From Clostridium sp. MD294 (lineage in GTDB: Bacteria > Bacillota > Clostridia > Lachnospirales > Anaerotignaceae): a DNA stretch of 40,000 nt. The translations under genes were made by a program, and so were the position numbers. A model generated the notes under the pieces. The model made no database searches. It was not told the origin of the DNA and saw nothing but the letters and a program-made list of their open reading frames with translations. The stretch is taken from assembly GCF_000364165.2 (NCBI RefSeq), contig NZ_CP097810.1:1574130-1614129 (forward strand), written 5' to 3'. Positions 9,115 through 25,589 of the stretch are shown here, in pieces (the stretch's first letter is position 1; the number at the start of each line of letters is the position of its first letter).

Positions 9115-9138
9115 AGACTTACAGAATGTAAGTCTTTT
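9115..9138 (+). repeat. 24-nt hairpin direct repeat, copy 2
   Basis: Exact copy of 8891-8914, immediately flanking the left multi-hairpin element. Confidence 0.9.
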
Positions 9139-9154
9139 AGTAATGTTGAAATTT

Positions 9155-9799
9155 TTAAATGGGTACGAATTTTACATGTAATACTTTTCCAATAATGCGA
9201 ACACGATTTTGCTCTTCACCGGAGAAAATATAAGAAGAATAAGAAGGATTTTCAGGTTGTAGTACAAGAATATTTTCTTTTTTTAGTATACGCTTTAAAG
9301 TAGCGGTTTCGTCATCAATAGTAACAACAGCAATATCACCATTATTAACGTCAGATTGTTTGCGAACAAGAACAAGGTCGCCGTCATGTATGCGAGCGTT
9401 TATCATACTGTTGCCTTTTACACGAACATAAATGTATTCATAAGAGGGATTTAATTCAGAAGCATCAATTGCTTCGTAACCTTCTATGTAATTATCTGAA
9501 AAAGAGGGATTACCAGCATGAACAGAACCAACAATAGGCAATTTGATAATAGAATTGTTTGATTGATTTATATTGTGGGTGCTGTGAAGATAACCACAAG
9601 ATACTAATAAATCTTCATAATTTACAATAGAACTAGCAATACTTTGAAGCAAACGAGCAGAGGGAGGTCTGTCTAATTTTAAATTAAGATATTTAGAAAG
9701 ATAAGTACGGTTAAAACCAGTAATTTCTGCAAATTCCGTTGAAGTTTTGCCGTTCATTAACTTGATAAGTTGTTCTTTAAAAAGATGTTTTTGAAACAT
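9155..9799 (-). CDS. CI/LexA-like repressor (XRE-type HTH plus S24 autopeptidase domain)
   Basis: N-terminal HTH (TSTEFAEITGFNRTYLSKYLN), Ala-Gly cleavage site in VHAGNP, GNSM serine and ATLKR lysine of S24 peptidases. AAGGAG RBS. Divergent from the phage late operon. Confidence 0.85.
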   Translation of the reverse strand: MFQKHLFKEQLIKLMNGKTSTEFAEITGFNRTYLSKYLNLKLDRPPSARLLQSIASSIVNYEDLLVSCGYLHSTHNINQSNNSIIKLPIVGSVHAGNPSFSDNYIEGYEAIDASELNPSYEYIYVRVKGNSMINARIHDGDLVLVRKQSDVNNGDIAVVTIDDETATLKRILKKENILVLQPENPSYSSYIFSGEEQNRVRIIGKVLHVKFVPI

Positions 9800-9833
9800 G
9801 ATGAAGGGGAACTCCTTTCTGATATATTGATAA

Positions 9834-9849
9834 TCATATTATAATATGA
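9834..9849. promoter_or_regulatory. perfect 16-bp palindrome TCATATTATAATATGA (candidate operator)
   Basis: Self-complementary sequence located between the divergent repressor and late genes. It overlaps the minus-strand -10. Related half-sites (TAATATGA / TCATAT) recur at 9908-9930. Confidence 0.5.
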
Positions 9850-9866
9850 TAATGAAAAAAAGGCAA
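9838..9866 (-). promoter_or_regulatory. candidate repressor promoter (TTGCCT-17-TATAAT on the minus strand)
   Basis: Reverse complement of 9861-9866 is TTGCCT and of 9838-9843 is TATAAT, with a 17-nt spacer. About 40 nt upstream of the repressor ATG. Confidence 0.5.
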
Positions 9867-9886
9867 TTTATAGATGATGTTTTTTG

Positions 9887-9915
9887 TTGACAAAGAACAT
9901 ATGTGCTGATAATAT
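9887..9915 (+). promoter_or_regulatory. candidate rightward promoter (TTGACA-17-TAATAT) overlapped by inverted repeat GATAATA-N6-TATTATC (9908-9927)
   Basis: Consensus -35 hexamer, 17-nt spacer, and a -10 matching consensus at 5 of 6 positions. It points into the activator/terminase operon. Confidence 0.6.
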
Positions 9916-10005
9916 GAAAGTATTATCATATGTGAAATAAGGAGAGGGTTTATTCAAAGGAGTGTAGTATGATGTATTTGTGAAAAAAATTAACGATACA
10001 AAGAA

Positions 10006-10488
10006 ATGGGGAATGTTTTCATTATGAAAGAGAAGAAATTTCAAAATATAGAAAAAAAGGAAAGGGTTCAGATGAAAAAGAAGCTGTTCAGATGGGGGAG
10101 AACACTTGATTTTTGTCAAAGAAAACAAAGAGAGATTGATAAACTTCAAAAAATGGCAAAACAGTTTTTTATATTGGGAAAAAACGCACCATTTTTAGGA
10201 GAAGAAGTAGTCACTTTGGAAGAAGCAAAACAGATTTATGAAAGAGAAATCATAAAAATTGTGGAGTATATAGAGAAGGAGATGGAAGAATATTCAAAAA
10301 TGGGGAGATATATAGAACAGTTGGAATATGAGGAACAAATATTTTTAAAATTGAGATATGAAAAAGAGTATCAGTATAACTATATATCATTACAGCTTCA
10401 TAAAAGTAGAGCAAAATGCTTTAGGGACCATGATGTAATATTAGATAAGTTGATAGTGATATGCAAAGAACAAAAATTAGCCGCATAA
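10006..10488 (+). CDS. putative late-gene activator (Xpf/ArpU/RinA-like, sigma region-4-like C-terminus)
   Basis: Sits directly upstream of the small terminase gene, as xpf does in PBSX. The C-terminal EQIFLKLRYEKE..YISLQLHKSRAKCFR stretch resembles a region-4 HTH. The start could be ATG 10024. Confidence 0.4.
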   Translation: MGNVFIMKEKKFQNIEKKERVQMKKKLFRWGRTLDFCQRKQREIDKLQKMAKQFFILGKNAPFLGEEVVTLEEAKQIYEREIIKIVEYIEKEMEEYSKMGRYIEQLEYEEQIFLKLRYEKEYQYNYISLQLHKSRAKCFRDHDVILDKLIVICKEQKLAA

Positions 10489-10591
10489 ATAAAATAAAAA
10501 TGCTAGTGAAAATATAGAAAAAGTTGTAATAAAAAAATGAGACTTTTTGAGATTTTACAAAATATATTCTGTAGAGGAAAGGAGGAAAAGT

Positions 10592-10975
10592 ATGAAAAAA
10601 GGCTTGAGTAAAAATGAAATTGTGTTTTGCCGCCTGAAGGCAGAAGGGAAAACAGACTTGCAGGCGGCAGAAGGAGCAGGCTATGTAGAAGAATATGGTA
10701 AAAACTTGTTAAAAAAGGAATATATACAAAAAGAAATAAAAAGATTGTTAGAAGAAAAAAGGAAAGAAGAAATTGCTAATGATACAGATATATTGCAGTT
10801 TTTAACAAGTGTGATGAAAGGAGATGCCTATAAAGAAAAAAGTGATGCTGCTATAAAAGATAGAATGAAAGCAGCGGAGTTGTTGGGGAAAAGACAAAAT
10901 GTGTTTGAACAAATAGAGAATAAAAATGATGTAGTAATTATAGTAGATGATATAGTAAATAAAGGGAAGTGCTGA
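10592..10975 (+). CDS. terminase small subunit
   Basis: AGGAGG RBS then ATG at 10592. The N-terminal HTH-like LSKNEIVFCRLKAEGKTDLQAAEGAGY and KDRMKAAELLGK are typical of Terminase_2/XtmA-like proteins. Immediately precedes the large subunit. Confidence 0.7.
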   Translation: MKKGLSKNEIVFCRLKAEGKTDLQAAEGAGYVEEYGKNLLKKEYIQKEIKRLLEEKRKEEIANDTDILQFLTSVMKGDAYKEKSDAAIKDRMKAAELLGKRQNVFEQIENKNDVVIIVDDIVNKGKC

Positions 10976-10979
10976 AGGA

Positions 10980-12227
10980 ATGAAAGAAAATAAAATTCAG
11001 CTTTCAAAATTAATTGCGAAATCGTTTTATGAAGTACATAAAGATATTTGGTGTGAAAATAATACACATTATTGGTTAAAAGGAGGACGAGGCAGTACAA
11101 AATCATCATTTGTTTCATTAGAAATTGTGTTAGGTATCATGAAAGATAAACAAGCGAATGGTGTAGTACTTAGAAAAGTAGGGGTTCATATAAAAGATAG
11201 TGTGTTTGAGCAAATATGGTGGGCAATATCTGTTTTGGAAGTAGAACAACAATGGGAAGGGAAACAGTCATCACCGCTAGAAATAACATATATACCTACA
11301 GGACAAAAAATATTATTTAGGGGAGCAGATAATCCCAAAAAAATAAAATCCATAAAATGCCGAAAAGGATATGTAAAATATATATGGTATGAAGAAACAG
11401 ATGAATTTTCAGGAATGGCAGAGATAAGAAATATAAATCAGTCATTGATGAGAGGCGGTAAAAAATTTGTAGTATTTTATACCTATAACCCTCCAAAAAG
11501 TAAAATGAATTGGGTAAATAAAGAAGTTGAAAGAAAAAGAGAAGATAAATATATACATCATAGCACTTATGAAGAAGTACCCCAACAGTGGCTGGGAGAG
11601 CAATTTTTTATAGAAGCGGAGCATTTAAAACAGGTACAACCCGAAGTGTATCAACATGAATATATGGGAGAAGTGGTAGATACAGAAGGGACAGTGTTTC
11701 AAAATATAGTATTGAGAGAAATTACACAAGAGGAGATAGCTGCATTTGATAATGTGTCTAGAGGATTGGATTGGGGATATGCAATAGACCCACTGCATTA
11801 TACAGTAAATCACTATGATAAAACAAGGAAAAAACTTTATATATATTTTGAGATACAACAAAGGGGATTAAGTAATAGAAAAACATATGAAATGATAAAA
11901 CAAGAAAATAAACAAAATGGGGTAATTGTAGCAGATAGTGCAGAACCAAAATCTATAGCAGAAATGCAGTCGTATGGTTTGAGAATGATAGGAGCAAAAA
12001 AGGGACCTGATAGCGTAAACTATGGTATAAAATGGCTGCAAAGTCTGGAACAGATAGTAATAGATGAAAAAAGATGTCCTAATACAGCAAGAGAATTTTT
12101 TGAATATGAATTAGAGAGGGATATTGATAATAAATGGCTGTCAAAATTTCCAGATAAAAATAACCATGCAATAGATGCAGTGCGATATGCAAGGGAATAT
12201 GATATGCGAAATGTAAAAGTAACATAA
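10980..12227 (+). CDS. terminase large subunit (PBSX/XtmB family)
   Basis: 415 aa with a Walker A-like GGRGSTKS, WYEETDE (Walker B) and a C-terminal nuclease HAIDAVRYA motif. Confidence 0.9.
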   Translation: MKENKIQLSKLIAKSFYEVHKDIWCENNTHYWLKGGRGSTKSSFVSLEIVLGIMKDKQANGVVLRKVGVHIKDSVFEQIWWAISVLEVEQQWEGKQSSPLEITYIPTGQKILFRGADNPKKIKSIKCRKGYVKYIWYEETDEFSGMAEIRNINQSLMRGGKKFVVFYTYNPPKSKMNWVNKEVERKREDKYIHHSTYEEVPQQWLGEQFFIEAEHLKQVQPEVYQHEYMGEVVDTEGTVFQNIVLREITQEEIAAFDNVSRGLDWGYAIDPLHYTVNHYDKTRKKLYIYFEIQQRGLSNRKTYEMIKQENKQNGVIVADSAEPKSIAEMQSYGLRMIGAKKGPDSVNYGIKWLQSLEQIVIDEKRCPNTAREFFEYELERDIDNKWLSKFPDKNNHAIDAVRYAREYDMRNVKVT

Positions 12228-12244
12228 AAGGAAGGAGGGAAAAA

Positions 12245-13822
12245 ATGTATATCACAGAATTGGAATTGATGAAAGCGAAATTACAGTCAGAGAAAAAATG
12301 GAGCGAAAGTGAACTACTAAAAATGCTCATAGCAGAAGATGAAAATAGTAAAAAGAAAAAGGAAATGATAGAAGGAGAAAAATATTATTGCTGTGAGCAT
12401 AATGTGTTACAAAAGAACTTTTCAGTAAGACATTTTTCAGAAACATATAAAAATACACAAGGAGAAGAACAAGAAAGAATAAAATTACTTTCTAATCCAA
12501 ATAGAAGTAATCATCATGTAGTATGTCCTTTTCATCATATTTTGGTAGAACAGAAAGTTTCTTATTTGGTAGCAAAAGAGCCAAGCATATTAGTAAGGGG
12601 AAAAGAAATAACAGAATATGAAAGATATATGACAACAGTAGCAAATGAAGTATTTAATGGGGTGTTGTATGAGTGGCTTGTTGGGGCATCAAATAAAGGA
12701 ATAGAGTATGTTCATGTTTATTATGATAAAGAGGGCGTATTGCAGTATTGTGTTGTACCAGCGGAAGAATTGATTGTATTTTATAATTCTGTAAATAAAA
12801 AAGAAATAGAGCAAGTAATAAGATATTATCAATTTGTAGTAGTAGAAAATGGTAAAGAAAAAATAGTAAAAAAGGTAGAATGGTGGACAAAACAAGATGT
12901 CACATATTATATAGAAAAAGGAGATGGAAGCTATAAAAAAGAAGAACAACAAAAAATAGGACATTGGACAGTAGTAAAAGGAAAACAAGAACAGACAGAG
13001 AAAGAGCAACATGGTTGGGGGAGAGTACCATTTATAGCACTTCGAAATAATAGTAAAGAAATGTCTGATTTAAAAATGATAAAAGGCTTGGTAGATGCTT
13101 ATGATTTGATATGTAGTGAAGGAACAAATAGCTTGTTGGATTTGGTAGAACTGTATTGGGTAATAGCAGGATATGGAGGAGAAACAGCAAATGCCATAAC
13201 AAAAAAATTGCAAGTCAATAGAGCAGTACAAATTTCAGATGCTTCTGGAAAAGTAGAAACGAAACAGGTACATTTGCCTATAGAGGGTAGAATAGAATGG
13301 CTGAAATTGTTGAGAAAAGATATATTTCATTTTGGTATGGGAGTAGATACAGATAGTGAAAGATTGGGGAATGCACCAAGTGGAGTATCATTAAAATTTC
13401 AGTATGCTATGTTTAATTTAAAAATCAATGGCATAATACCTGAAATTAAAAAAGCATTGAAAGAGTTTTTTTGGTTTTTAATAGAAGATAATAATAGAAA
13501 AAATGGTACAGAATATGATGTAAATCAATTAGATTTTAGATTAAATCTAAATAGCATAACAGATGATATAGAAACAGTAAATATGATAACAGCATCAAAA
13601 GGTATTGTAAGCGAAAAAACACTTTTGGCACAGCACCCATTTGTACAAGATGTAAATAGTGAAATGGAAGCAATAAAACAAGAAAAAGAAAGGAATGAGA
13701 AATATCATGCAGATGGAGAAAATAGACAAACAAGAGCAATACAAAACAAAAGAACAAGAATACCAGCAGAAAATAGCACAGTTGAAAAAAGAAAAGGAAG
13801 AATTGAAACAGCAATACAATGA
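12245..13822 (+). CDS. portal protein (SPP1 gp6-like)
   Basis: 525 aa, positioned after the terminase, with an overall portal-like pattern. The charged C-terminal tail overlaps the next ORF by more than 100 nt. Confidence 0.8.
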   Translation: MYITELELMKAKLQSEKKWSESELLKMLIAEDENSKKKKEMIEGEKYYCCEHNVLQKNFSVRHFSETYKNTQGEEQERIKLLSNPNRSNHHVVCPFHHILVEQKVSYLVAKEPSILVRGKEITEYERYMTTVANEVFNGVLYEWLVGASNKGIEYVHVYYDKEGVLQYCVVPAEELIVFYNSVNKKEIEQVIRYYQFVVVENGKEKIVKKVEWWTKQDVTYYIEKGDGSYKKEEQQKIGHWTVVKGKQEQTEKEQHGWGRVPFIALRNNSKEMSDLKMIKGLVDAYDLICSEGTNSLLDLVELYWVIAGYGGETANAITKKLQVNRAVQISDASGKVETKQVHLPIEGRIEWLKLLRKDIFHFGMGVDTDSERLGNAPSGVSLKFQYAMFNLKINGIIPEIKKALKEFFWFLIEDNNRKNGTEYDVNQLDFRLNLNSITDDIETVNMITASKGIVSEKTLLAQHPFVQDVNSEMEAIKQEKERNEKYHADGENRQTRAIQNKRTRIPAENSTVEKRKGRIETAIQ

Positions 13823-14099
13823 AAAATTAAAACAGTATGTAGTACAGTCTGCATTAAAACAAGCAGGAGGAAGAAATACAAAAGCATTATTAGCATTGGT
13901 GGAATTGCAAGATATTGTTTTAAATGAAGATGGAACAGTAGAAGGATTGGATATAAAAAAATTAAAAAGAGAAGTCCCTTATTTATTTGAGGAAGAAAAC
14001 AAAAAAATAGAGGGAACGGGATATTATAGTACAAATAAAAAAGTAGATAAAAAAAGTGAAGCAGCAAAACAGTTTCAAACAGCATTGATGAGAAGATAA
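13707..14099 (+). CDS. scaffolding protein (GP20-like)
   Basis: Coiled-coil K/E/Q-rich ~130-aa protein between portal and capsid. The start is ambiguous (ATG 13695, 13707 or 13713). Confidence 0.55.
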   Translation: MQMEKIDKQEQYKTKEQEYQQKIAQLKKEKEELKQQYNEKLKQYVVQSALKQAGGRNTKALLALVELQDIVLNEDGTVEGLDIKKLKREVPYLFEEENKKIEGTGYYSTNKKVDKKSEAAKQFQTALMRR

Positions 14100-14115
14100 A
14101 AGGAGGAAAAATAGT

Positions 14116-15039
14116 ATGAGTATCAATACAATAGAATATGCAAAAATATTTATGGAAGCGTTAGATGAACAGCTAATAGCAGGAGCAACAAGTGGCTGGA
14201 TGGAAGAAAATAGTGGACAGATACAGTATACTGGAGGAAATGAGGTAAAAATACCAAAAATAGAATTGAATGGTCTGGGTACATATGATAGAGATAATGG
14301 ATTTGTGCAAGGTGCAGTAACATTGACATATGAAACAAAACAAATGACACAAGATAGAGGAAGAACATTTCAACTTGATGCGATAGATGTAGATGAAACA
14401 AATTTTGCATTGGTAGCAGGGAATGTAATGGGAGAATTTCAGAGAACAAAAGTAATACCAGAAATTGACGCATATCGCTATAGTAAAATAGCAGAATTGG
14501 CAACAGAAAGTAAAAAAGTGTCTTATTATCATGCTGAGAAAGATAGTATTGTACAAAAACTTTTAGAAGAAATCACAATAATAAAAGATATTGTAGGAGA
14601 TGAAAATGAAGTAATTGTAACAATGTCAACAAAAATAGCCAATTTGTTAGATATAGCAAGTAACCATATGTTGGAAAGTGGTGTTTTTGAACAGGGAAAA
14701 GTGGAATTGAAAGTTAAAAATATAGATGGAAGTCCTATTATAAGAGTGCCTTCTGCAAGATTAAAAACAAGCTATCAATTTTTTGATGGAGTAACAACAG
14801 GAGAAACAGAAGGTGGATTTGAAGCAAAAACAGATGCAAAAGATATAAATTGGATTATAGCAGTACGTCATGCGTTAATAGGAGTGTCTAAAACAGATGT
14901 AACAAGAATATTCGACCCATTAACAAATCAAAAAGCAAATGCTTGGAAAATTGACTATAGAAAATACCATGATTTGTGGATACCAGATAATGCAATAGAA
15001 GGAATATGGGTAAATATTGATGGACAAGCAACAGCATGA
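14116..15039 (+). CDS. major capsid protein (XkdG-like)
   Basis: 307 aa with a GGAGG RBS, positioned after the scaffold. The N-terminus MSINTIEYAKIF..LDEQL resembles PBSX-type capsid proteins. Confidence 0.8.
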   Translation: MSINTIEYAKIFMEALDEQLIAGATSGWMEENSGQIQYTGGNEVKIPKIELNGLGTYDRDNGFVQGAVTLTYETKQMTQDRGRTFQLDAIDVDETNFALVAGNVMGEFQRTKVIPEIDAYRYSKIAELATESKKVSYYHAEKDSIVQKLLEEITIIKDIVGDENEVIVTMSTKIANLLDIASNHMLESGVFEQGKVELKVKNIDGSPIIRVPSARLKTSYQFFDGVTTGETEGGFEAKTDAKDINWIIAVRHALIGVSKTDVTRIFDPLTNQKANAWKIDYRKYHDLWIPDNAIEGIWVNIDGQATA

Positions 15040-15055
15040 GCAGGTGATAAATAAA

Positions 15056-15487
15056 ATGAAACAAAATGATGAAAAAGAGCAATATTTTGTGACAGTAGAA
15101 GAAGTATATCAAAAAATAAAAGAGCTTAGAAAAAGTAAAGAAGAAATAAAAGAAAATGAAATAGAACAACAAACAGAGCAAGAAATAGAACAAATAGATG
15201 ATATATTGCTTTTTGCAAGTGAAAGAAGTATTGAAATGGTAAAGGGCTATTGTAATATAGAAAAAGTACCAAAAGAATTAAAGAATGTTTGTGTAGAAAT
15301 AACAATGTTGCTTTATGATAATGAGAATTATAGAGAAGAAGAAAAAAATGCTCGCTTGAAAAGTATAACAGAAGGTAATGTTTCGGTAAGCTACCAAAGT
15401 GAAAAAAGTAGTTGGAGAGAGCAAAAAAATGTTTTGTTGAGAACATTTTCAGAGGAATTAGATAAATTTAGAAATATGAAATGGTAG
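15056..15487 (+). CDS. head-tail connector (gp6-like / QLRG family)
   Basis: ATG 15056 after AGGTGA. The C-terminal LKSITEGNVSVSY motif is typical of Phage_connect_1 proteins. Confidence 0.6.
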   Translation: MKQNDEKEQYFVTVEEVYQKIKELRKSKEEIKENEIEQQTEQEIEQIDDILLFASERSIEMVKGYCNIEKVPKELKNVCVEITMLLYDNENYREEEKNARLKSITEGNVSVSYQSEKSSWREQKNVLLRTFSEELDKFRNMKW

Positions 15488-15524
15488 TAGTGAAATAGTA
15501 AGGGGAGGGAAAAGAGGTGAAAAT

Positions 15525-15884
15525 ATTATAAAAAGAACAAAAAGAGAAGTAGAGAAATTTTTTAATGAAAAATGTACTGTAACAGTATGGGAAAAACAAA
15601 AACAAAATTGGGGAGAAATATTGTTTGTAGAAAAAGAAGAAAAAAAACAAATAAAATGTAGATTGTGTAGAAGCCCTAAAATAGTAGTAAAAAATGGTGT
15701 TTTACCTGCAAAAATACTATATGATGCAGTATTGTTGTTTTGTAAAGAAGATGTGATAAAGGCAGGAAGTAATATAGAAATAGAGAAGGAGGGAGGGGAA
15801 AATATTGTATTTAAAAGTGTAGGAGAAATGGTAAGTTATAGTACACACAATGAAATTGCATTAAAAAGAGAAGATATAGCATAA
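15525..15884 (+). CDS. head-closure / head-tail adaptor-like protein (non-canonical start inferred)
   Basis: The frame is open from 15480. There is no ATG, GTG or TTG before 15621, but coding-like sequence (IIKRTKREVEKFFNEKCTVTVWEK...) begins at ATT 15525, 5 nt after GAGGTG. Confidence 0.4.
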   Translation: MIKRTKREVEKFFNEKCTVTVWEKQKQNWGEILFVEKEEKKQIKCRLCRSPKIVVKNGVLPAKILYDAVLLFCKEDVIKAGSNIEIEKEGGENIVFKSVGEMVSYSTHNEIALKREDIA

Positions 15885-15901
15885 AAAAGGGGGGAAAGTG
15901 A

Positions 15902-16342
15902 GTGGAGAAAGGGATATTACAAATTATAAAAGAAATTGTAATAAAAACAATAGCAGAACAATTTGAACAAAGTGAAGTATATGGGGAAGAAGTACCTCAA
16001 AATGGAAGTAAAAATTGTTTTGGAGTAAGTGTAAAAAGTGTAGAACAGAAACCACTTTTAAAGGGTAGACGAGAACAATGGATAACAATGAATGTAGAGT
16101 ATAGAAATGATGTAGAAAAAAGAGAAAAAGCAGAAAGTATAGAAAAAGTAGAAATACTTTATGATGTGTTGTCATTGATAGGGGAAGGGAAAAATAAATT
16201 TTTTGCAGTAAAAATGCAGCATAATATGACAGAAAAAGGATTTCAATTTGAAGTAACTTACTATGTGCAAATTATGCCTGTTGTAACACAAAGAAAAATG
16301 GAAAGATTAGAATATAATGGAAGTCAAGTAGTAGGATATTAA
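15902..16342 (+). CDS. tail completion / head-tail joining protein (XkdI/J position)
   Basis: 146 aa with a GTG start after GGGGGGAAAG. Its position between connector and sheath genes is the only support for the function. Confidence 0.45.
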   Translation: MEKGILQIIKEIVIKTIAEQFEQSEVYGEEVPQNGSKNCFGVSVKSVEQKPLLKGRREQWITMNVEYRNDVEKREKAESIEKVEILYDVLSLIGEGKNKFFAVKMQHNMTEKGFQFEVTYYVQIMPVVTQRKMERLEYNGSQVVGY

Positions 16343-16361
16343 AAAATAAGGAGGAAAAGGA

Positions 16362-16535
16362 GTGCAAGAAGAAAGAAATGTGTATGAAAAAGAACAGTTT
16401 TTGAAAAGTAAAAATAAAAAGTGGAATAAAGATGTTGTACAAGCAGTATTAAAAGAAGGGAAACAGTATAGTAAAAAAGAAGCCGAGAGATTAGTCAAAA
16501 TGTATTTAGAGGGAAAAAGAGAAAGGAGAAGATGA
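16362..16535 (+). CDS. small hypothetical phage protein (57 aa, below the track cutoff)
   Basis: GTG at 16362 lies 6 nt after AAGGAGGAAAAGGA. It fills the gap before the sheath gene, and its stop at 16533-16535 is 6 nt before the sheath ATG. Confidence 0.4.
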   Translation: MQEERNVYEKEQFLKSKNKKWNKDVVQAVLKEGKQYSKKEAERLVKMYLEGKRERRR

Positions 16536-16541
16536 AAGCGT

Positions 16542-17849: not shown

Positions 17850-17869
17850 TTAGGTGAGGGGGTAATAAA

Positions 17870-18325
17870 ATGGCGTATTTGAGAGCAAAAGATACAATAA
17901 ATGGAGCATTGGGTACTTGCTTTGCGTTAATCAATGGAAATCGATATGAAATTATGCAGGCGAAAAATGTAGAGGCAAAAGTAGAGAAAACAAAATCAGA
18001 AATACCAATATTGGGGCTGACATCAAAACAGCATAAAGCTGGAGGCTGGAAAGGTACTGGAACAATGGAGGTGTATTATGTTTCAAGTTTGTTTAGAAAG
18101 GTAATGTTAGAGTATATGAAAAATGGGGTGGATACTTATTTTGAATTGCTTGTAACAAATGAAGACCCTACAAGTGAAACAGGGAAACAAACAGTACTTT
18201 TAAAAGGAGTTAATATTGATAGTATGTTTATTACAAAATTAGATGTAGATAAAGAAGCATTAGATGAAGTATTGACATTTACATTTAATGATGCAGATTT
18301 GCTAGAAGCGTTTGAAGAATTGTAA
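17870..18325 (+). CDS. tail tube protein (XkdM-like)
   Basis: 151 aa, immediately after the sheath gene. The AKDTINGALGTCFALINGNRYE pattern is typical of XkdM-type tubes. Confidence 0.8.
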   Translation: MAYLRAKDTINGALGTCFALINGNRYEIMQAKNVEAKVEKTKSEIPILGLTSKQHKAGGWKGTGTMEVYYVSSLFRKVMLEYMKNGVDTYFELLVTNEDPTSETGKQTVLLKGVNIDSMFITKLDVDKEALDEVLTFTFNDADLLEAFEEL

Positions 18326-18402
18326 AAAAAAGAAAATAAAACAGTCCTCCATCTTATTAGATGGGGGACGTATATTATATAAATAAAAAGGAGTGTAAGG
18401 GA

Positions 18403-18747
18403 ATGCAGGCATATTATAAACAAAATAGAAAAGAAATAAAAAATAAAAAAATAGTAATTTCTGAGAGATTGGTAGATAAACAAGGAAATGTAGTTGTGTG
18501 GGAAATAAGACCATTAAGCCAAAAAGAAAATGAAAATATATTAAAAAAATGTAGAGCAATGAAAGAAGAAGGAAAACAAAATTTGTATGAGGTAATGGTA
18601 TTGGTAGAAAGTGTTGTGTTTCCAGATTTAAGTAATGTAGAACTGCAAAATAAATACCATGTGATAGGAAAAGAAGCATTACTTTTAGAAATGTTGACAG
18701 CAGGAGAATATGAAAAGCTGAAAAATGTGGTGGAAGAAGTGCAGTAA
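18403..18747 (+). CDS. XkdN-like tail assembly chaperone, paralog 1 (no frameshift extension, no tape measure downstream)
   Basis: ATG 18403 after AAGGAG. Shares the W.I..L..KE block and the C-terminal EMLT.GEY..L block with 20409-20777. Confidence 0.7.
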   Translation: MQAYYKQNRKEIKNKKIVISERLVDKQGNVVVWEIRPLSQKENENILKKCRAMKEEGKQNLYEVMVLVESVVFPDLSNVELQNKYHVIGKEALLLEMLTAGEYEKLKNVVEEVQ

Positions 18748-18763
18748 AAGGGGAGGAAAAAAT

Positions 18764-19426
18764 ATGTATCGATTTTATATGAAACAAAATGGAGAACAAA
18801 TATTGCTGCCAGTAGCACCATCAGAATTGATAACAAATGTAGAAGGAGAAAGTGAGAGAGTAGAGTTAGTAGATATAGGAGAGGGAAGTATATTAAAAGA
18901 TATAGGATTGAGAAGAATTTCTTTTACAGTGTTGCTGCCAGCAGTACAGTATAGTTTTGTACAAACAGAAGGTGTATTTCAGCCACCTATATTTTTTTTA
19001 AATCAGTTTAGACAGTATAAAATGAGTAAAAAACCAGTAAGTTTGATTGTGTTTCGAAAGTTAGCAGATGGTACAGAATTGTTTAGTGGAAATATAGATG
19101 TTTCTTTTGAAAGATATACAGTACTGGAAAGGGGAGGAGAACAAGGTGATTTTTGGGTAGAAATCAATTTGAAAGAATATAGGAAAATCACATCTGCAAC
19201 ATATAAAATAGAGCAAAAAGAGGGACAAACAGTATTAGAAGAATATGGAGTAAAAAGAGAAGGAAAAGAAATTCCAAATACTTATACAGTAAAAAAGGGA
19301 GATAGTTTGTGGAAAATTGCACAAACAATGCTAAATGATGGTAGTCGCTATAAAGAAATTGCAGAAAAAAATAATATTGTAAATCCCAATAAAATACAGA
19401 TAGGACAAATACTGCGTTTGGGGTGA
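18764..19426 (+). CDS. LysM-domain tail/baseplate protein (XkdP-like)
   Basis: ATG 18764 after GGGGAGG. C-terminal LysM (YTVKKGDSLWKIAQTML..IQIGQILRL). Confidence 0.8.
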   Translation: MYRFYMKQNGEQILLPVAPSELITNVEGESERVELVDIGEGSILKDIGLRRISFTVLLPAVQYSFVQTEGVFQPPIFFLNQFRQYKMSKKPVSLIVFRKLADGTELFSGNIDVSFERYTVLERGGEQGDFWVEINLKEYRKITSATYKIEQKEGQTVLEEYGVKREGKEIPNTYTVKKGDSLWKIAQTMLNDGSRYKEIAEKNNIVNPNKIQIGQILRLG

Positions 19427-20406
19427 TAAAAATGAAAATTAAAATGCTTGTAAAAAATAATAATAAAATGTATGATGCAACAAATTTGTTAGAAGGAGAG
19501 GTTGTTGTAGAGAAAAGTATTATAGGGACTTGTGGAAAAATGACTTGTTCTATTATAAGAGATGGCGTAACACAGTTTGTAGAAGGAAATCAAATACAAT
19601 TTTATGCAGAAGATAAATTATTTTTTTCAGGGTGGATAATGAAAAAAAGTAGAACTTCTAAACAAATTATAGAAGTAACGGCATATGACCAGTTTTTTTA
19701 TTTGGTACAAAATAAAGATACCTATGTGTATTATAACAAAAAAGCATCAGAACTCATACAAATGATAGCGAATGATTATGGCTTAGAAATGGGAGAAATT
19801 TGTAATACAATGTGGCAAATTCCGCAAAGAATAGAAGAAGGTCAAACACTTTGGGATATGATTAATACAGCACTAAATTTAACAAAAAAGGAGATAGGGA
19901 AAGAATATTTTTTTTATGATGAAGGGGGAAAATTAACACTAACAGAAAAAAGTGATATGGTAACAAATGAAGTGTTGCAGTGTGATGGAAGTATAGAAGA
20001 TTATATTTATATAACAGATATATCAGAAGATACTTATAATGGTGTACAGCTGTTTCAGGCGGGAAGATTGGAAACAGAAAAATTGTCTTATAGAGAAGAA
20101 AAAGAAGAAGAAATTAAAAAATGGGGCAGAATATTGTACTATCAAAGAGTAGACCATAGATTAACACAGTATGATTTAAGAGCAATAGGAAATACAATTT
20201 TGTCACAAAAATGCCGTGTAAAAAAGACATTGCTATTAAAACAATTTTCAGAAAAATTAATATTAATACCAGGCCAGTCTATTTATATAGAATTACCAGA
20301 ATTGGCTGAAATTAGTTTAAAAGGTATGTTTGTAATAGAAAAAGGAATTTATCATTTTTTTAATGGAGGATATAAAGCAGATTTGAATATAAGAATGGAG
20401 GAGTAA
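19423..20406 (+). CDS. XkdQ/YqbQ-like baseplate hub protein (gpD/late control D-like)
   Basis: 327 aa with a GTGA stop-start overlap with the LysM gene (alternative ATG at 19432). Size and position match xkdQ. Confidence 0.7.
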   Translation: MIKMKIKMLVKNNNKMYDATNLLEGEVVVEKSIIGTCGKMTCSIIRDGVTQFVEGNQIQFYAEDKLFFSGWIMKKSRTSKQIIEVTAYDQFFYLVQNKDTYVYYNKKASELIQMIANDYGLEMGEICNTMWQIPQRIEEGQTLWDMINTALNLTKKEIGKEYFFYDEGGKLTLTEKSDMVTNEVLQCDGSIEDYIYITDISEDTYNGVQLFQAGRLETEKLSYREEKEEEIKKWGRILYYQRVDHRLTQYDLRAIGNTILSQKCRVKKTLLLKQFSEKLILIPGQSIYIELPELAEISLKGMFVIEKGIYHFFNGGYKADLNIRMEE

Positions 20407-20408
20407 TT

Positions 20409-20777
20409 ATGATAGAAGAAAAATATTTGCTAGAAGAAAAAGAAATTGAAGTATCTAAAAGATTTATAGGAGAAAATGGAAAACCTCTGAAATGGAGAAT
20501 AAAAGCATTAAAAGAAAAAGAACATCAAAAAATAAAACAAACAAAAACAACAGAAGCAATAGAGCAATATTGGGGAAAATTGTGTGCTAGTTGTGTTGTA
20601 ATACCAAATTTGAATGATAGAGAACTTTTAAAAAGTTATGGCTGTGATAAAGCAGATGAAGTATTGAAAGAAATGCTTACAATGGGAGAATATATGATAC
20701 TTTTGAAAGCAGTAAGAGAACAAAATTGCTTTGAACAAAGAGAACAAAAAATAAAAAATGATATAAAAAAGCAATAA
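20409..20777 (+). CDS. XkdN-like tail assembly chaperone, paralog 2 (zero-frame product)
   Basis: 122 aa, paralogous to 18403-18747. It ends 3 codons after an A_AAA_AAG slippery heptamer. Confidence 0.7.
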   Translation: MIEEKYLLEEKEIEVSKRFIGENGKPLKWRIKALKEKEHQKIKQTKTTEAIEQYWGKLCASCVVIPNLNDRELLKSYGCDKADEVLKEMLTMGEYMILLKAVREQNCFEQREQKIKNDIKKQ

Positions 20778-20890
20778 AGGAGGGTAGAGCAGAAACAGAT
20801 TATGCTGCTTATGCTCTCCGACATTATCATATATTGCCAAGTCAATATTTTCGTATGGATTTCGAACAGAAAATGTTTATAAAAAGTGTA
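20765..20890 (+). other. predicted -1 programmed ribosomal frameshift site (A_AAA_AAG, 20765-20771) with a 39-codon -1 extension to the stop at 20888-20890
   Basis: The heptamer is in the correct phase with the 20409 frame. The -1 frame is open from 20762 and encodes AIKEGRAETDYAAYALRHYHILPSQYFRMDFEQKMFIKV. The arrangement mirrors the gpG/gpGT chaperone pair upstream of tape-measure genes. Confidence 0.6.
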
Positions 20891-20913
20891 ATAGATTTGG
20901 AACTGGAGGAGAG

Positions 20914-22206
20914 GTGATGATAATGTTTTCTTTTTATAAAAAACAGTTTTTAAAAAATGAAAAAGGAAATGATTTTTTTTGGCGTTGGTATGAACAGGAA
21001 GAAATGCAAAAGAAAAGTATATTGTGGCGACAACAATATCTGTATGAAAATAAACAACAGTCGCTGTATAAAATGGTTGGAGAGAAAGAAAATAGTATAA
21101 AAAATAATAAAGAGAAAAAAAGTGTTGAAAAAGAAATAAAAAAGAAACAAAAACAGGAAAATAGTATATTTAAAAAACAAGAAATATTTGAAAAACAAAA
21201 AACAAAAAGTATGTTTGATGAAATACAGTATCAAAAAGAATATGAAGAATATAAACAAACAGAAGAACAAAAAAGACAACAACAACAGAAAAAAAGTGAT
21301 ATAGAAAAACAATACCAAATTGAAAAAGAAAAACAAATAAAATATCAGATACAAAATAAATATGAAATAGAAAAACAGTACCAAATAGAACAACAAAAAC
21401 AATATCAAAAACAAAAACAGCAACGATACCAACAACAAAAACAAAATATACAACAAAAACAGCAAGAATATGAACAACAAATTCAAAAACAACAACAAAA
21501 AAGAAAACAAACACAACAGCAAAATGAAAATAAAAGAGAACAAAAAAGACAAGAATTACAACAATATAAAATAGATAAAAAAAATCAAAAACAAAGTGAA
21601 AGTGTATGGGAAATAGAAAAACAAAATAGAGAATATAACAAAGAGATAGAAAAACAGAAATACTTTGATATAAAAGAAATATTTGATAAAAAAGGAAGCG
21701 AAAATAAAAAAGAGAAACAGAATAAAGTAGTGTTAAAAGAAATAAAAAAAGGTGATATTTGGGGATATGGAAATAGCATTTTAAAAAAAGAAAAAAAAGA
21801 AAGTGTTTTTAATTTAGGAAAACAAATATTACAACAAAAAGAATATAGTGTAAAAAATAATATAGAAAAAATAAAACAAAAGAATTTAGAACAAAAACAA
21901 AATAAAAAACAATGGCAAAAAGAAGTGTGGCCTGGTTCAGAACAAAAAAGAGATATAAAAAGTGTGTGGGAAAAAGAAAATAAAAATATAGAACAAATAG
22001 AACAATATAATAAAAAAATAAATACAGAAATAATACAAAATGTTGTAAAAAATAGTTTAAAACAAAAAGAAGAGCAAAAACAGCAAAAACAACAAGTGCA
22101 GCAAAAGCAACAAAATGTTGATATAAATACATTGTTTTTACATATGACAGAAAAGCTGTTAGAACAAAGAGAGAGAAGTTTGAGAGCAAGTCAAATGAAA
22201 ATATGA
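20914..22206 (+). CDS. K/Q/E-rich low-complexity protein in the tape-measure position (putative atypical tape measure)
   Basis: A 430-codon open frame in AT-rich DNA, with a GGAGGAGAGG RBS (ATG at 20917). It lies directly after the chaperone/frameshift pair and before the XkdR-like gene. I recognise no sequence motif. Confidence 0.45.
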   Translation: MMIMFSFYKKQFLKNEKGNDFFWRWYEQEEMQKKSILWRQQYLYENKQQSLYKMVGEKENSIKNNKEKKSVEKEIKKKQKQENSIFKKQEIFEKQKTKSMFDEIQYQKEYEEYKQTEEQKRQQQQKKSDIEKQYQIEKEKQIKYQIQNKYEIEKQYQIEQQKQYQKQKQQRYQQQKQNIQQKQQEYEQQIQKQQQKRKQTQQQNENKREQKRQELQQYKIDKKNQKQSESVWEIEKQNREYNKEIEKQKYFDIKEIFDKKGSENKKEKQNKVVLKEIKKGDIWGYGNSILKKEKKESVFNLGKQILQQKEYSVKNNIEKIKQKNLEQKQNKKQWQKEVWPGSEQKRDIKSVWEKENKNIEQIEQYNKKINTEIIQNVVKNSLKQKEEQKQQKQQVQQKQQNVDINTLFLHMTEKLLEQRERSLRASQMKI

Positions 22207-22221
22207 AATGGGGAAAAAAGT

Positions 22222-22578
22222 ATGTTAGAAGCAGTAAAATTGTTGGCATATGATGTATTGCAGCAAGAAAATATAGCAGATATTTGTTATGGTACTGTAA
22301 CAGCAACAGAACCACTAAAAATAATATTGGAGCAAAAATTAGAATTAACAGAAAATTTTTTGATATTGTCACAAAATGTAATGAAACATTATGAAAGCTT
22401 TTATATGAGGAAAAAAGATAGTAATGAACAGTGGGAACACTATGAAATCATAATTGAAAAGGAACTAAAAAAGGGAGAAAGAGTCATATTGATGAAAATG
22501 ACAGGAGGACAAAGATATGTCGTATTGGATAGAGTAGGAGAGGAGATGACAGAAAATGAAACTGACACCACAGTCTGA
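22222..22578 (+). CDS. XkdR-like baseplate protein (DUF2577-like)
   Basis: 118 aa. The GTVTATEPLKIILEQKLELTENFLIL pattern is typical of DUF2577. Confidence 0.7.
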   Translation: MLEAVKLLAYDVLQQENIADICYGTVTATEPLKIILEQKLELTENFLILSQNVMKHYESFYMRKKDSNEQWEHYEIIIEKELKKGERVILMKMTGGQRYVVLDRVGEEMTENETDTTV

Positions 22579-22963
22579 AATAGAAGTAAATAGTAATGTG
22601 GTTATACAAAAAATACCTACATTAACTTATAGAGTGCAAAAAGAAAAAGAAATTGTTTCTGGTACAGTAGATGAATTGGAAGCAATGAAACAGGCAGTGT
22701 TTAAAATATTGTTTACAGAAAGATACCAGTATGAAATTTATAATTGGGAGTATGGTATGGAATTGAAAGATTTGTTTGGTAGAGCAAAAAGTTATGTGAT
22801 ACCAGAAATGAAAAAGAGAATTGAGGAGGCATTGCTGGCGGATGATAGAATAAAAGCAGTAACAGATTTTCAATTTGGAGGGAAAAAAGGAGAATTGGAA
22901 GTAAAATTTAAAGTACATACTATATTTGGAACACTAGAAATAGAAAGGACGGTTGATATTTAA
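22556..22963 (+). CDS. XkdS-like baseplate protein (DUF2634 / gpW-like)
   Basis: 135 aa that overlaps the previous gene. The TYRV...GTVDELEAMKQAVFKILFTERYQYEIY pattern is typical of DUF2634. Confidence 0.7.
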   Translation: MKLTPQSEIEVNSNVVIQKIPTLTYRVQKEKEIVSGTVDELEAMKQAVFKILFTERYQYEIYNWEYGMELKDLFGRAKSYVIPEMKKRIEEALLADDRIKAVTDFQFGGKKGELEVKFKVHTIFGTLEIERTVDI

Positions 22964-24033
22964 TGTATGAGAGTTATGAGGAATTGATGGAGAGAAAGCT
23001 AGAACAAGTAAATCAAAAAAGAGATAGAAGACAGGGAAGTATTATATTTGATGCGATTGCACCAAATGCAGCAGAAACAGCTATATTTTATGCAGATTTA
23101 AAAATGCTGGAAAATCGTACTTATGGAGATAGTGCAACAGAACAAGATTTAACAAGAAGATGTATGGAAAGAGGAGTTTTTAGAAAAGAAGGTACAAAAG
23201 CCACTTTTTTAGGAAAATTTATAGATAGAAATGAAAGAGCTTGTAATGTACCTATTGGTATGAGATTTAATTTGGAAGAATTAAATTATATTGTAATAGA
23301 AAAGACAGCAGTAGAAGGAGAGTATATATTAGAGTGCGAAACAGTAGGAGAAACAGGTAATCAGTATTTAGGGGATTTAATACCCATTACATATTTAGAG
23401 GGACTGGCAAAAGGAGAATTGATAGAACTGCTTACAGAAGGAGAAGATGAAGAAACAGATGAAAGTCTGAGAAAAAGATACTATAGTAGTTTTAATACAG
23501 ATACATTTGGGGGAAATATAGAAGACTATAAAGTAAAAGTAATGGCATTAAAAGGAGTAGGAGGAGTAAAAGTAACACCAGTTTGGAATGGAGGAGGAAC
23601 AGTAAAACTGACAATAGTAGACGGAAATTTCAATGCACCAATAGAAGGAGAAATTGCAAAAATACAACAAGTAATAGACCCTCAAAAAAGGGGATTGGGC
23701 TATGGTATTGCACCAATAGGACATAAAGTAACAGTAGAACCAGCAAAAGAAGTACAATGCTATATAGAAATGACATTGTTATTAAAAGATGGAACAAATA
23801 AAACAAAAGTAACAGAAGAAATTACAAATTCTATAGAAGATTATTTTTCAAATTTGAGAAAACAATGGGCAGATATGGAATATTTAACAGTACGTATTAG
23901 TTATTTGGAAGCGAGGGCATTGGACGCAGAAGGAGTTATTGATGTGCAATATACTAAAATAAATGACCGTGCACAAAATTATATATTAGAATATAATGAA
24001 ATTCCGTTTTTGGGAAGTGTGGTGACAGAATGA
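22963..24033 (+). CDS. baseplate J-like protein (XkdT-like)
   Basis: 356 aa with a TAATG overlap with the previous gene. Size and position match gpJ/gp47-family proteins. Confidence 0.85.
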   Translation: MYESYEELMERKLEQVNQKRDRRQGSIIFDAIAPNAAETAIFYADLKMLENRTYGDSATEQDLTRRCMERGVFRKEGTKATFLGKFIDRNERACNVPIGMRFNLEELNYIVIEKTAVEGEYILECETVGETGNQYLGDLIPITYLEGLAKGELIELLTEGEDEETDESLRKRYYSSFNTDTFGGNIEDYKVKVMALKGVGGVKVTPVWNGGGTVKLTIVDGNFNAPIEGEIAKIQQVIDPQKRGLGYGIAPIGHKVTVEPAKEVQCYIEMTLLLKDGTNKTKVTEEITNSIEDYFSNLRKQWADMEYLTVRISYLEARALDAEGVIDVQYTKINDRAQNYILEYNEIPFLGSVVTE

Positions 24034-24599
24034 AACAAATTTATGAAAAATATTTGCCACCATTTGTAAAAGACACAAGAGAATTTCAAATGCTTTCAGA
24101 AATAGAAGGAAATATATTGACAGAAGAAAAACAGGCAAAACAATATTTAGAAGATGACCAATGGATTGTAACAGCAACAGAAAGAGGATTAAAAAGAAGA
24201 GCAAAATTATTAAATATTGTAAGAGAGCAAAATGAAAGTTTAGAAGATTTTAGACAAAGAATACTTTTTTTGTGGAACCATCATAAACCTTATACTTATT
24301 TTCATTTGTTAGATTGGTTGGAAGGAATATGTAATAAAGATAATGTAACAAATGTAGTAGTAGATATGCAGCATGATTTGTATTATTTACATATAGAAAT
24401 TAGATTGATTAAAAAACAATTGCAAGAGGAAATAAAAAAGACAGTAAGAAAAATGATACCTGCCAATATCGTGTTGGAGGTAACATTGCGATATAATTTG
24501 TATGGAGAAATAAAACCGTATACTTATGGAGATTTAAAACGAAAACAGTTCCGATATATTGATATAAGAGAAGAAGATATTAGATATTGGGAAATGTAA
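24030..24599 (+). CDS. XkdU-like tail protein (DUF2313/YmfQ-like)
   Basis: 189 aa with an ATGA overlap. The YLPPFVKDTREFQML..E start is typical of DUF2313. It is the last gene of the structural operon. Confidence 0.75.
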   Translation: MKQIYEKYLPPFVKDTREFQMLSEIEGNILTEEKQAKQYLEDDQWIVTATERGLKRRAKLLNIVREQNESLEDFRQRILFLWNHHKPYTYFHLLDWLEGICNKDNVTNVVVDMQHDLYYLHIEIRLIKKQLQEEIKKTVRKMIPANIVLEVTLRYNLYGEIKPYTYGDLKRKQFRYIDIREEDIRYWEM

Positions 24600-24632
24600 A
24601 TAATAAAATATGTTTCAAAATTTAATGTGTCA

Positions 24633-24661
24633 GCGTGTCGATAAAATCGACACGTTTTTTT
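24633..24661 (+). terminator. rho-independent terminator; its hairpin is a third copy of hairpin H1 of the multi-hairpin element
   Basis: cgtgtcga-taaaa-tcgacacg plus T7. 24631-24654 matches 8915-8938 at 22 of 24 positions in direct orientation. Confidence 0.85.
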
Positions 24662-24761: not shown

Positions 24762-25451
<690 letters not shown>

Positions 25452-25563: not shown

Positions 25564-25589
25564 AATATAAAAAACACATTATAATTGCT

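Follow-up and report, generated by a model that had tools for sequence, protein, structure and literature searches.

A cluster of particle genes of about 15.4 kb (positions 9155-24599) was found in the window analysed here, a stretch of 40,000 nt with a G+C content of 31% from Clostridium sp. MD294, a cultured strain that is part of the GM15 gnotobiotic mouse consortium. The capsid protein is 100% identical to the one of MD294, and the repressor gene was located on contig VIRC01000011.1 of GCA_010206345.1. The cluster is probably a domesticated, chromosomally fixed element of the PBSX type that has long been kept by the host lineage, and on the best reading of its genes any fibre and lysis functions would lie elsewhere. 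All 22 open reading frames (ORFs) of the cluster belong to regulation, packaging, head or tail. In what is called here the original prediction, a model that saw only the letters of the DNA and a list of ORFs had argued for maintained function rather than decay, and this was strongly supported by the conserved architecture and position of the cluster, by the ratio of non-synonymous to synonymous substitution rates (dN/dS) and by co-divergence with the flanking genes. Two of its suggested interpretations, a domesticated particle like PBSX or a gene transfer agent (GTA) and a particle with its fibre and lysis genes elsewhere, are both favoured by the present analysis.

Relatives were sought by scanning one genome per GTDB species with XkdT, and further assemblies were added by look-ups over whole clusters centred on the major capsid protein (MCP). 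As a query, the large terminase (TerL) retrieved true prophages, and the MCP was the better orthologue marker. The XkdT scan found 15 species at 52-95% identity, comprising eight gut Clostridia near MD294 (cultured or uncultured, from mouse gut and other guts), Ca. Epulonipiscium, several Anaerotignum and related metagenome-assembled genomes, and Chakrabartyella piscis. All 15 shared the same rearranged tail gene order (TAC1-XkdP-XkdQ-TAC2-variable gene-XkdR to XkdU) and ended at XkdU with no fibre genes after it; with the further assemblies, more than 20 species have this architecture. On the MD294 contig the cluster lies 3′ of the glycolytic operon cggR-pgk-tpi-gpmI-eno and 5′ of the NagZ-like, relA, dtd, hemZ and hisS genes, and synteny of these flanks holds within the MD294 group. 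The genes after XkdU in Anaerotignum, Chakrabartyella and Ca. Epulonipiscium are secG-rnr and usually smpB, with purE intervening in Epulonipiscium. The order in A. lactatifermentans is LysM protein, S24 repressor, activator, small terminase (TerS), TerL and onwards to XkdU, then secG, the LysM protein being 50% and the repressor 60% identical to those of MD294.

By protein identity, the minimal clusters stand closer to one another than to the true prophages found in these bacterial families (MCP 65% against 46% identity, sheath 67% against 49%). Four such prophages, L022-L025 (L-numbers are labels of comparison loci or contigs from other genomes), carry PolA (DNA polymerase), primase, helicase, a Mu-F head protein and extra connector genes. 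The original prediction had named a full-length prophage at the same site in relatives as a finding that would refute it; none was seen, the relatives carrying the same minimal set, and an assembly artefact or a recent deletion specific to one strain is excluded.

Measured against the two closest species (dS 0.3-0.6), dN/dS of the structural genes was 0.02-0.22. The tail tube gene was the most constrained (0.02-0.03), with XkdS at 0.03, XkdT at 0.05 and the MCP at 0.066. Repressor, activator, TerS and TerL gave 0.06-0.21 against more distant relatives, the repressor having values of 0.06-0.07. For the flanking host genes (RelA, dtd, HemZ and the NagZ-like gene), dN/dS was 0.05-0.15 at the same dS as the cluster. 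The cluster is under purifying selection comparable to that on the flanking housekeeping genes. Across seven species, the distances of five baseplate proteins tracked those of the NagZ-like protein and RelA (r=0.96, exact Mantel p=0.0006), the host genes in this test being physically linked to the cluster, and the pairwise distances of cluster and host were nearly equal in magnitude. These comparisons indicate that the cluster is inherited vertically at a fixed chromosomal position.

The gene classes named in the original prediction were all recovered where it had placed them (Pfam, PHROG and NCBIfam). The features of the cluster are as follows, with profile matches in brackets.

9155-9799, minus strand: autocleavable S24 repressor, XRE-type helix-turn-helix (HTH) plus Peptidase_S24, CI/LexA-like, divergent from the operon
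9800-10023: divergent promoter region with palindromes, putative operator
10024-10488, plus strand: late activator with a sigma-region-4-like C-terminal HTH (Xpf/RinA/ArpU class)
10592-10975, plus strand: small terminase TerS (Pfam Terminase_2, 3.4e-12)
10980-12227, plus strand: large terminase TerL, PBSX family (Pfam Terminase_3 and Terminase_3C)
12245-13822, plus strand: SPP1-type portal (Pfam SPP1_portal, 2.5e-91)
13695-14099, plus strand: scaffold (Pfam Phage_scaffold, 1.5e-16, profile positions 56-164 of 170)
14116-15039, plus strand: MCP (phrog_422 major head protein, 9.4e-104)
15056-15487, plus strand: head-tail adaptor 1 (phrog_132, 2.5e-13), start as in the gene call of L016
15525-15884, plus strand: head-tail adaptor 2 (phrog_615, 1.4e-11)
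15902-16342, plus strand: tail terminator (Pfam Phage_tail_terminator_8, 3.6e-16)
16362-16535, plus strand: conserved 57-aa protein, 5′ of the sheath gene (phrog_966, 2.7e-13)
16542-17849, plus strand: contractile tail sheath (four sheath Pfam domains)
17870-18325, plus strand: tail tube, XkdM-like (Pfam DUF2001, 1.9e-49)
18361-18747, plus strand: TAC1, XkdN-like chaperone lacking a frameshift extension (Pfam Phage_TAC_5, 4.9e-25)
18764-19426, plus strand: XkdP-like LysM baseplate protein (Pfam LysM, 9.4e-14; phrog_380, 4.3e-57)
19423-20406, plus strand: XkdQ/YqbQ-like baseplate hub (Pfam YQBQ, 2e-79, residues 29-323 of 327)
20409-20777, plus strand: TAC2, canonical XkdN-like chaperone, G form (Pfam Phage_TAC_5, 2e-22)
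20764-20914, plus strand: slippery site A_AAA_AAG (20764-20770) and −1 extension, the GT form of TAC2
20914-22206, plus strand: tape-measure candidate, K/Q/E-rich, 430 aa, placed directly after the TAC2 G/GT unit
22222-22578, plus strand: XkdR-like spike/plug protein (Pfam DUF2577, 1.5e-23)
22556-22963, plus strand: XkdS-like sheath initiator, gp25-like (Pfam Sheath_initiator, 1.4e-29)
22963-24033, plus strand: XkdT-like Baseplate J wedge protein (Pfam Baseplate_J, 2.5e-55)
24030-24599, plus strand: XkdU-like wedge protein, Mu gp48-like, last gene of the operon (Pfam Phage_Mu_Gp48, 1e-13)
24632-24663, plus strand: intrinsic terminator at the operon's end (stem of 11 pairs, then TTTTTTT)

The stop-start overlaps that had been read at 19423-19426, 22961-22965 and 24030-24033 agree with these ORF coordinates, and the strong terminator announced for the end of the operon does follow XkdU directly, its 11-bp stem and T-run lying at 24632-24656. 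The statement that nothing else is present failed, since the 430-aa ORF at 20914-22206 had gone unlisted. The description as a PBSX-like set fits the protein families and not their order, there being no tape measure between the first chaperone and XkdP; the tail module instead runs TAC1-XkdP-XkdQ-TAC2 (G/GT)-short tape-measure candidate-XkdR.

The slippery heptamer lies two codons before the stop of TAC2, and past it 47 codons of open −1 frame reach to the K/Q-rich gene's start. Every relative keeps the extension peptide, and in seven real phages and prophages the unannotated ORF directly behind XkdN is homologous to it (E 5e-18 to 2e-7). The slippery A-run is found at the same position in all relatives and reference phages compared. 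A hidden Markov model (HMM) of the extension gave a single match in the window and none in the DNA 3′ of TAC1. On this evidence the −1 frameshift of TAC2 is read as programmed, so that the earlier claim of no frameshifted or truncated genes stands for truncation only. The arrangement of G and GT chaperone forms is classical and precedes the tape measure. A frameshift fusion of TAC1 (dN/dS ~0.2) to XkdP, which follows it directly, was also considered and was rejected, as the overlap is not kept in the Anaerotignum-type loci.

Because it stands directly after a G/GT chaperone with a conserved frameshift extension, the 430-aa K/Q/E-rich protein, whose ORF makes up 8% of the cluster, is very probably a very short tape measure, an assignment made by position. 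Its orthologues are intact ORFs in all loci, 195-433 aa long with a middle part of variable length, and they keep an N-terminal FFWxWY-like motif and a C-terminal motif resembling D-I/V-D/N-x-L..TEKLLEQRERS. The dN/dS of this gene was 0.25-0.31. With an HMM of three phage tape-measure C-termini, three of the candidate's orthologues ranked 1-3 among 3522 ORFs (E 0.6-1.3) with their C-terminal ends aligned, and phrog_1068 matched the candidate at E=0.22.

Among the regulatory genes, the repressor matched Pfam Peptidase_S24 at 6.7e-29 and HTH_3 weakly. It had been called SOS-cleavable, and the motifs for self-cleavage are indeed intact in the translation: VHAG with the Ala-Gly site, the GNSM serine and the TLKR lysine. 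It is 54-60% identical to its counterparts in the Anaerotignum-type loci. The possibility that it is the host LexA was set aside, as its score against NCBIfam lexA (109.4 bits) is just under the cutoff of 110.95 and covers only the C-terminal S24 domain, the N-terminus being an XRE-type HTH. In L033, ruvA-ruvB follow the S24 repressor gene directly and on its strand, in what looks like an operon. The divergent promoter region of MD294 contains a sigma-70-like site, TTGACA-17-TAATAT, at 9887-9915, a 30-bp palindrome at 9827-9856 and related arms at 9909-9932; a guessed operator consensus showed no enrichment.

The activator matched phrog_36 (transcriptional regulator) at 4.5e-9, and its orthologues gave weak matches to Sigma70_r4_2 and DUF1492. 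In its AlphaFold model (predicted local distance difference test score 86), the C-terminal 60 residues fit sigma region 4 domains at 1-3 Å. In Foldseek the best PDB matches were likewise sigma region 4 domains, none of them at E<=0.001. The Xpf/ArpU-like label given in the original prediction is therefore reasonable and modestly supported, with a family match and a predicted fold behind it and no significant Foldseek E-value.

In the head module, the start of TerS was chosen from its ribosome-binding site (RBS) and the gene call in L016. TerL scored 123.5 bits against NCBIfam TIGR01547 (cutoff 105.05) and the portal 172.5 against TIGR01538 (cutoff 165.85). Head-tail adaptor 2, when called from TTG 15621, covers only positions 37-115 of phrog_615, and the 33 in-frame codons 5′ of this TTG are conserved at the protein level. 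Upstream, ATT 15525 follows a GAGGTG RBS and is replaced by ATG in L002 and L006. Adaptor 2 probably starts at this non-canonical ATT, the other orthologues probably using ATT, ATA or ATC. The 134-nt gap at 15487-15621 was consequently rejected as a sign of truncation, being conserved coding sequence with a non-canonical start.

TerL is 68% identical to TerL of complete prophages of Anaerotignum and Ca. Metalachnospira (L022-L024) and only 58-61% identical to that of the orthologous minimal cluster of Anaerotignum (L034/L035). Capsid, portal and sheath show the opposite pattern and are closer to the minimal clusters. The TerL pattern suggests mosaicism or recombination with phages, or else unequal rates. 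The scaffold is about 50 residues shorter than in the nearest complete prophages (L022-L025; homologues of 178-186 aa), which also have a Mu-F-like head protein and an HK97-gp10-like connector, both lacking from the minimal cluster.

Among the tail proteins, the sheath matched PDB 3HXL at 8.5e-111 and the diffocin sheath CD1363 at 1e-12. A small gene equivalent to that of the 57-aa protein is also present in related prophages and phages. Alignments of XkdP with its relatives begin at about residue 10-14, and XkdU covers only positions 31-208 of the 534-position profile phrog_521. The XkdQ homologue of a C. difficile phage is a 629-aa fusion with a C40 peptidase; XkdQ of MD294 has no fused hydrolase domain.

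The absence of replication, integrase, fibre and lysis modules, as claimed in the original prediction, stands: profile searches found no replication, integrase, fibre, holin or endolysin domain in any ORF of 9155-24599, and about 56 kb of the contig around the cluster gave none of these functions either. Integrase, excisionase, replication and att features were likewise not found inside the cluster, nor were fibre or lysis genes in the 10 kb beyond either window end. Adsorption and release are not explained by the cluster's own genes.

The following sequence of events is proposed. DNA damage would trigger self-cleavage of the S24 repressor, as its intact cleavage and catalytic motifs suggest. 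The divergent promoter would then yield the sigma-region-4-like activator, which would switch on the single late operon. TerS, the PBSX-family TerL and the SPP1-type portal would fill capsids by a headful mechanism, in keeping with the families to which they belong. A contractile tail would be built on the XkdP-U baseplate, its length set by the short tape measure delivered by the frameshifting TAC2; the frameshift signal and its homology are observed, and the tape measure would owe its identity to position. As the operon stops at XkdU in all genera examined, release, and perhaps adsorption, would depend on genes outside the cluster, where the absence is observed and the dependence presumed. 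Most likely, a fraction of the cells would make small particles of the GTA/PBSX kind that carry DNA and benefit kin.

Besides the physical linkage noted for the co-divergence test, several observations weigh against a domesticated, maintained element of this kind. Unlike in classical GTAs, a phage-type repressor is kept and no obvious host control is apparent. Searches of the cluster and of about 56 kb of the surrounding MD294 contig yielded no gene for a receptor-binding protein, tail lysin, holin or endolysin. Comparison of the tape-measure candidate with known tape measures by hhalign, C-terminal HMMs in both directions, Pfam and PHROGs was not significant, and the candidate lacks the hydrophobic segments seen in the tape measure of phiCT9441A. 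Some relatives have also lost parts: L033 has no TerL and a portal cut to 301 aa (about half), the L032/L008 lineage lacks the 5′ part of the cluster (TerS, TerL) and has insertions, L035 has lost the repressor and XkdU, and L010 has several frame breaks.

Sequence alone does not decide between DNA transfer, as in a GTA, and killing, as by PBSX. Carriage of DNA is favoured because head and tail genes are equally constrained and there is no diversifying specificity protein; a tail-centred role is favoured because L033 keeps the tail only and the tape measure lacks hydrophobic segments. Tentatively, as a possibility held with less confidence than domestication as such, the cluster may be an ancient contractile-tailed GTA of gut Lachnospirales (Anaerotignaceae, some Lachnospiraceae and Epulopiscium relatives) with a duplicated chaperone and an ultra-short tape measure free of hydrophobic segments, one that encodes no fibres, tail lysin or lysis functions itself, is still under SOS control and acts in the mouse gut. 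Lachnospirales as used here covers the MD294 group, Anaerotignum, Chakrabartyella and Epulopiscium-like bacteria. If true, no earlier myovirus-type GTA apart from PBSX would have a defined and conserved gene set.

An alternative that is unlikely, and still the strongest rival, is a killing particle in the style of PBSX, whose contractile tail would act as a bacteriocin against related strains and whose filled heads would deliver no DNA, as reported for PBSX. The tail genes are the most constrained of the cluster, and L033, with no TerL and a truncated portal, retains the whole tail module with an Amidase_2 gene after XkdU. The lack of hydrophobic segments in the tape-measure candidate may mean that no DNA is delivered, and PBSX has itself been described as tailocin-like (PMC12946183). 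Against this, a receptor-binding fibre is lacking, as is the fast-evolving specificity determinant normally seen in bacteriocin systems; between species with about 90% identity in RelA, XkdT and XkdU still share 79-89%. Capsid, portal and terminase are as constrained as the tail in the MD294 group (dN/dS 0.07-0.15), and no lysis cassette is present.

That the cluster is a functionless prophage remnant that merely persists, either young in each lineage or hitch-hiking beside essential genes, is improbable. The deletions, insertions and frame breaks of several lineages would fit such a remnant, as would the missing functions for autonomous release and adsorption, and automated pipelines do label the cluster as prophage (IMG/VR contigs L026-L031). 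Against this, all 22 ORFs are intact in MD294 and in most of the more than 20 loci at dS up to ~1, dN/dS is 0.02-0.3 throughout, and the architecture, the frameshift signal and the context of the non-canonical start codon are conserved across genera. A neutral remnant is unlikely because its ORFs would not stay open at such divergence.

Least likely is a helper-dependent element that moves between hosts, either a satellite or a defective phage completed in trans by a co-resident PBSX-like prophage, from which it would take fibres, lysis and perhaps replication. In its favour, related complete prophages with a 68% identical TerL occur in the same bacterial families, a hint of recombination with phages comes from TerL being nearer to theirs than to its Anaerotignum counterpart, and a serine recombinase gene adjoins XkdU in the MD294 group. 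Against it, neither integrase or excisionase genes nor replication or att features lie within the cluster, and L003 and every other genus lack the recombinase block. The 168-nt repeats on either side belong to an insertion resembling a MITE (miniature inverted-repeat transposable element), which a sister strain does not have. The cluster also keeps one chromosomal site and diverges in step with host genes, and known capsid-forming satellites lack tails rather than fibres. The original prediction had offered a satellite borrowing from a helper as its third interpretation, which is disfavoured on the same grounds, namely the missing integrase, replication and att features and a locus that is fixed and vertically inherited.

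The MD294 cluster shares with PBSX of B. subtilis a PBSX-family TerL, an SPP1-type portal, a contractile tail of the XkdK/M/N/P/Q/R/S/T/U type, a repressor with a sigma-like activator, one late operon, a chromosomal location and the lack of replication and integration genes. PBSX is about twice as long, with a 1332-aa tape measure, XkdO, between XkdN and XkdP, and it carries fibre genes (XkdV onwards), XepA, holins and the lysin XlyA; its repressor Xre is not an S24 protease. It is reported to package random host DNA of about 13 kb and to kill without injecting DNA. In the MD294 cluster, by contrast, a 430-aa tape-measure candidate stands after XkdQ, the chaperone is duplicated and fibre and lysis genes are lacking. 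Sequence identity of the cluster to annotated PBSX-like phages is only ~30%. The myophages phiCT9441A, CDMH1 and MismyG have the same head-tail families, the TAC frameshift peptide and the slippery site, and differ in having lysogeny and replication modules. In these reference phages and in Makh22, the genes stand in the order sheath, tube, XkdN, tape measure (667-780 aa), XkdP, XkdQ, XkdR, XkdS, XkdT, XkdU, fibres, holin and lysin.

RcGTA of Alphaproteobacteria is siphovirus-like and controlled by the host regulators CtrA and GafA. The MD294 cluster resembles it in being a head-tail cluster of about 15 kb that lacks replication and integration genes, is vertical and under purifying selection, and would have any fibre and lysis functions outside the main cluster. 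It differs in its unrelated proteins, its contractile tail and its retained phage-type SOS repressor, and its DNA packaging and transfer are putative. Features that it has in common with GTAs are a phage-derived head-tail set lacking replication, integration and excision genes, vertical inheritance and purifying selection on the structural genes.

A preprint of July 2026 (10.64898/2026.07.08.737213) describes genome-wide read coverage of virus-like particles (VLPs) for the mouse-gut Anaerotignaceae 'Coprocola', from which GTA activity was inferred; it points to a core of 14 kb that holds TerS, TerL and structural genes, and to holin and endolysin genes in a cluster of their own of 3.6 kb. For the packaging of random host DNA in pieces too short to hold the cluster's own genes, and for its delivery to recipients, this probably related element is the one source of support. 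This putative GTA, as described there, resembles the MD294 cluster in its mouse-gut origin, its placement in Anaerotignaceae, its lack of integration and replication genes and the location of its lysis genes elsewhere. The study relies on VLP coverage and gives no gene-by-gene anatomy, comparative or selection analysis. To judge from its figure-level description, the 14-kb cluster probably belongs to the same family as that of MD294.

FpGTA of Faecalibacterium was presented as only the second GTA-like system in Gram-positives, after PBSX (PMC12946183). It is likewise GTA-like, near-ubiquitous in its genus and found in a Gram-positive gut commensal, and it differs in being podovirus-like, with another architecture and in another bacterial family. 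The R-type tailocins of Firmicutes (diffocin, monocin) have homologous sheath, tube and baseplate proteins; they lack capsid, portal and terminase and possess receptor-binding and lysis genes, and the MD294 cluster is the reverse, with capsid, portal and terminase all intact and constrained. It shows none of the integrase, replication, att and mobility features of phage-inducible chromosomal islands or their capsid-forming kind. Nor does it have the lysogeny, replication, fibre and lysis modules of an intact temperate PBSX-like myophage, in contrast to L022-L025 and phiCT9441A. In the literature on Anaerotignum or Anaerotignaceae with GTA, tailocin or defective prophage, no description of the cluster family was found among the matches listed.

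The element is of a known kind, and what is new is its conservation across the family, its rearranged tail module and its complete lack of genes for adsorption and lysis. Only lately have GTA-like elements been recognised in Gram-positive gut bacteria (PBSX, then FpGTA in 2026), and capsid-packaged host DNA is plentiful in gut VLP fractions, the gene clusters responsible being mostly not known. The MD294 cluster offers a dissected, comparatively validated candidate in a cultured strain that can be tested in vitro and in a defined mouse model. It raises the questions of how a tail can be assembled and fired when its tape measure is 200-430 aa long and free of hydrophobic segments, what role the extra chaperone TAC1 has with no frameshift extension, how a particle with neither fibres nor a wall hydrolase engages a Gram-positive cell, and whether the scaffold, shorter by ~50 residues, relates to a smaller capsid.

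Scans of the 40,000-nt window for tRNA and tmRNA genes and against Rfam gave no matches. In the window (1-6130) and in L041, a DIP1984/DUF6847 gene and three genes for polysaccharide deacetylases break up the glycolytic operon. MD294 has the cluster downstream of eno, and other genera have it upstream of secG-rnr; in B. subtilis the glycolytic operon and the secG-rnr gene group are close neighbours. Upstream of the cluster, at 7581-8819, a gene convergent to the repressor gene encodes a 412-aa protein with a C-terminal LysM domain. The same protein adjoins the cluster upstream in Anaerotignum (50-52% identity, full length), and it may be part of the module or, alternatively, belong to the host and mark the ancestral site. 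Its N-terminus has, by eye only, a degenerate MPN/JAB-like motif, GWVHTQP, and a weak resemblance to the SOS cell-division inhibitor YneA was seen in its LysM region.

Most species of the MD294 group have a four-gene block that separates XkdU from the NagZ-like gene (24801-28107). Two of its genes lie just outside the cluster interval.

24801-25451: invertase-type serine recombinase
26246-27316: XerS-like tyrosine recombinase

The other members are a CoA-pyrophosphatase-like Nudix protein and a TtcA-like PP-loop protein. L003 lacks the block, and in L005 and L007 it is enlarged by sigma-factor-like and other small genes, the extra genes not being annotated by profile search. Its recombinase has dN/dS of ~0.09, that is, purifying selection. 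The serine and XerS-like recombinases were rejected as the element's integrase because the block is absent in L003 and in all Anaerotignum-type loci.

Several of the comparison loci have peculiarities of their own. In L033 (6541-20581) the tail module is intact, and a 35-aa ORF and the Amidase_2 gene follow XkdU. In L032 (1870-4111) and L008 (2874-4277), the place of TerS and TerL upstream of the portal is taken by genes for a holin, a Hol_Tox peptide, an Amidase_2 and a D12 methyltransferase; in this lineage XkdQ and TAC2 are separated by ~1.4 kb of extra DNA, and the tube gene and TAC1 by small ORFs. A gene for a 526-aa large serine recombinase (19876-20966) overlaps the end of XkdT and replaces XkdU in L035, as if another mobile element had inserted at the cluster end. 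In L023 (7985-9466), a complete prophage related to the cluster, KwaB and KwaA of the Kiwa defence system lie between the early genes and TerS.

Finally, a 168-nt inverted repeat flanks the region (8912-9079 and 28283-28450, 92% identical). It was rejected as an element boundary or an invertible segment, as a sister strain with an identical repressor (L017) lacks the 224-nt segment. Because of this same strain, the repeat is read as a strain-polymorphic MITE-like insertion which duplicated the terminator hairpin. The MITE-like repeat, of ~200 nt (8891-9139), sits in the terminator hairpin between the LysM and repressor genes, and the 24 nt duplicated by the insertion are AGACTTACAGAATGTAAGTCTTTT. 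The second copy, inverted (28283-28460, 92%), precedes the NagZ-like gene, and the 5′ end of the repeat resembles the terminator 3′ of XkdU (24621-24656).

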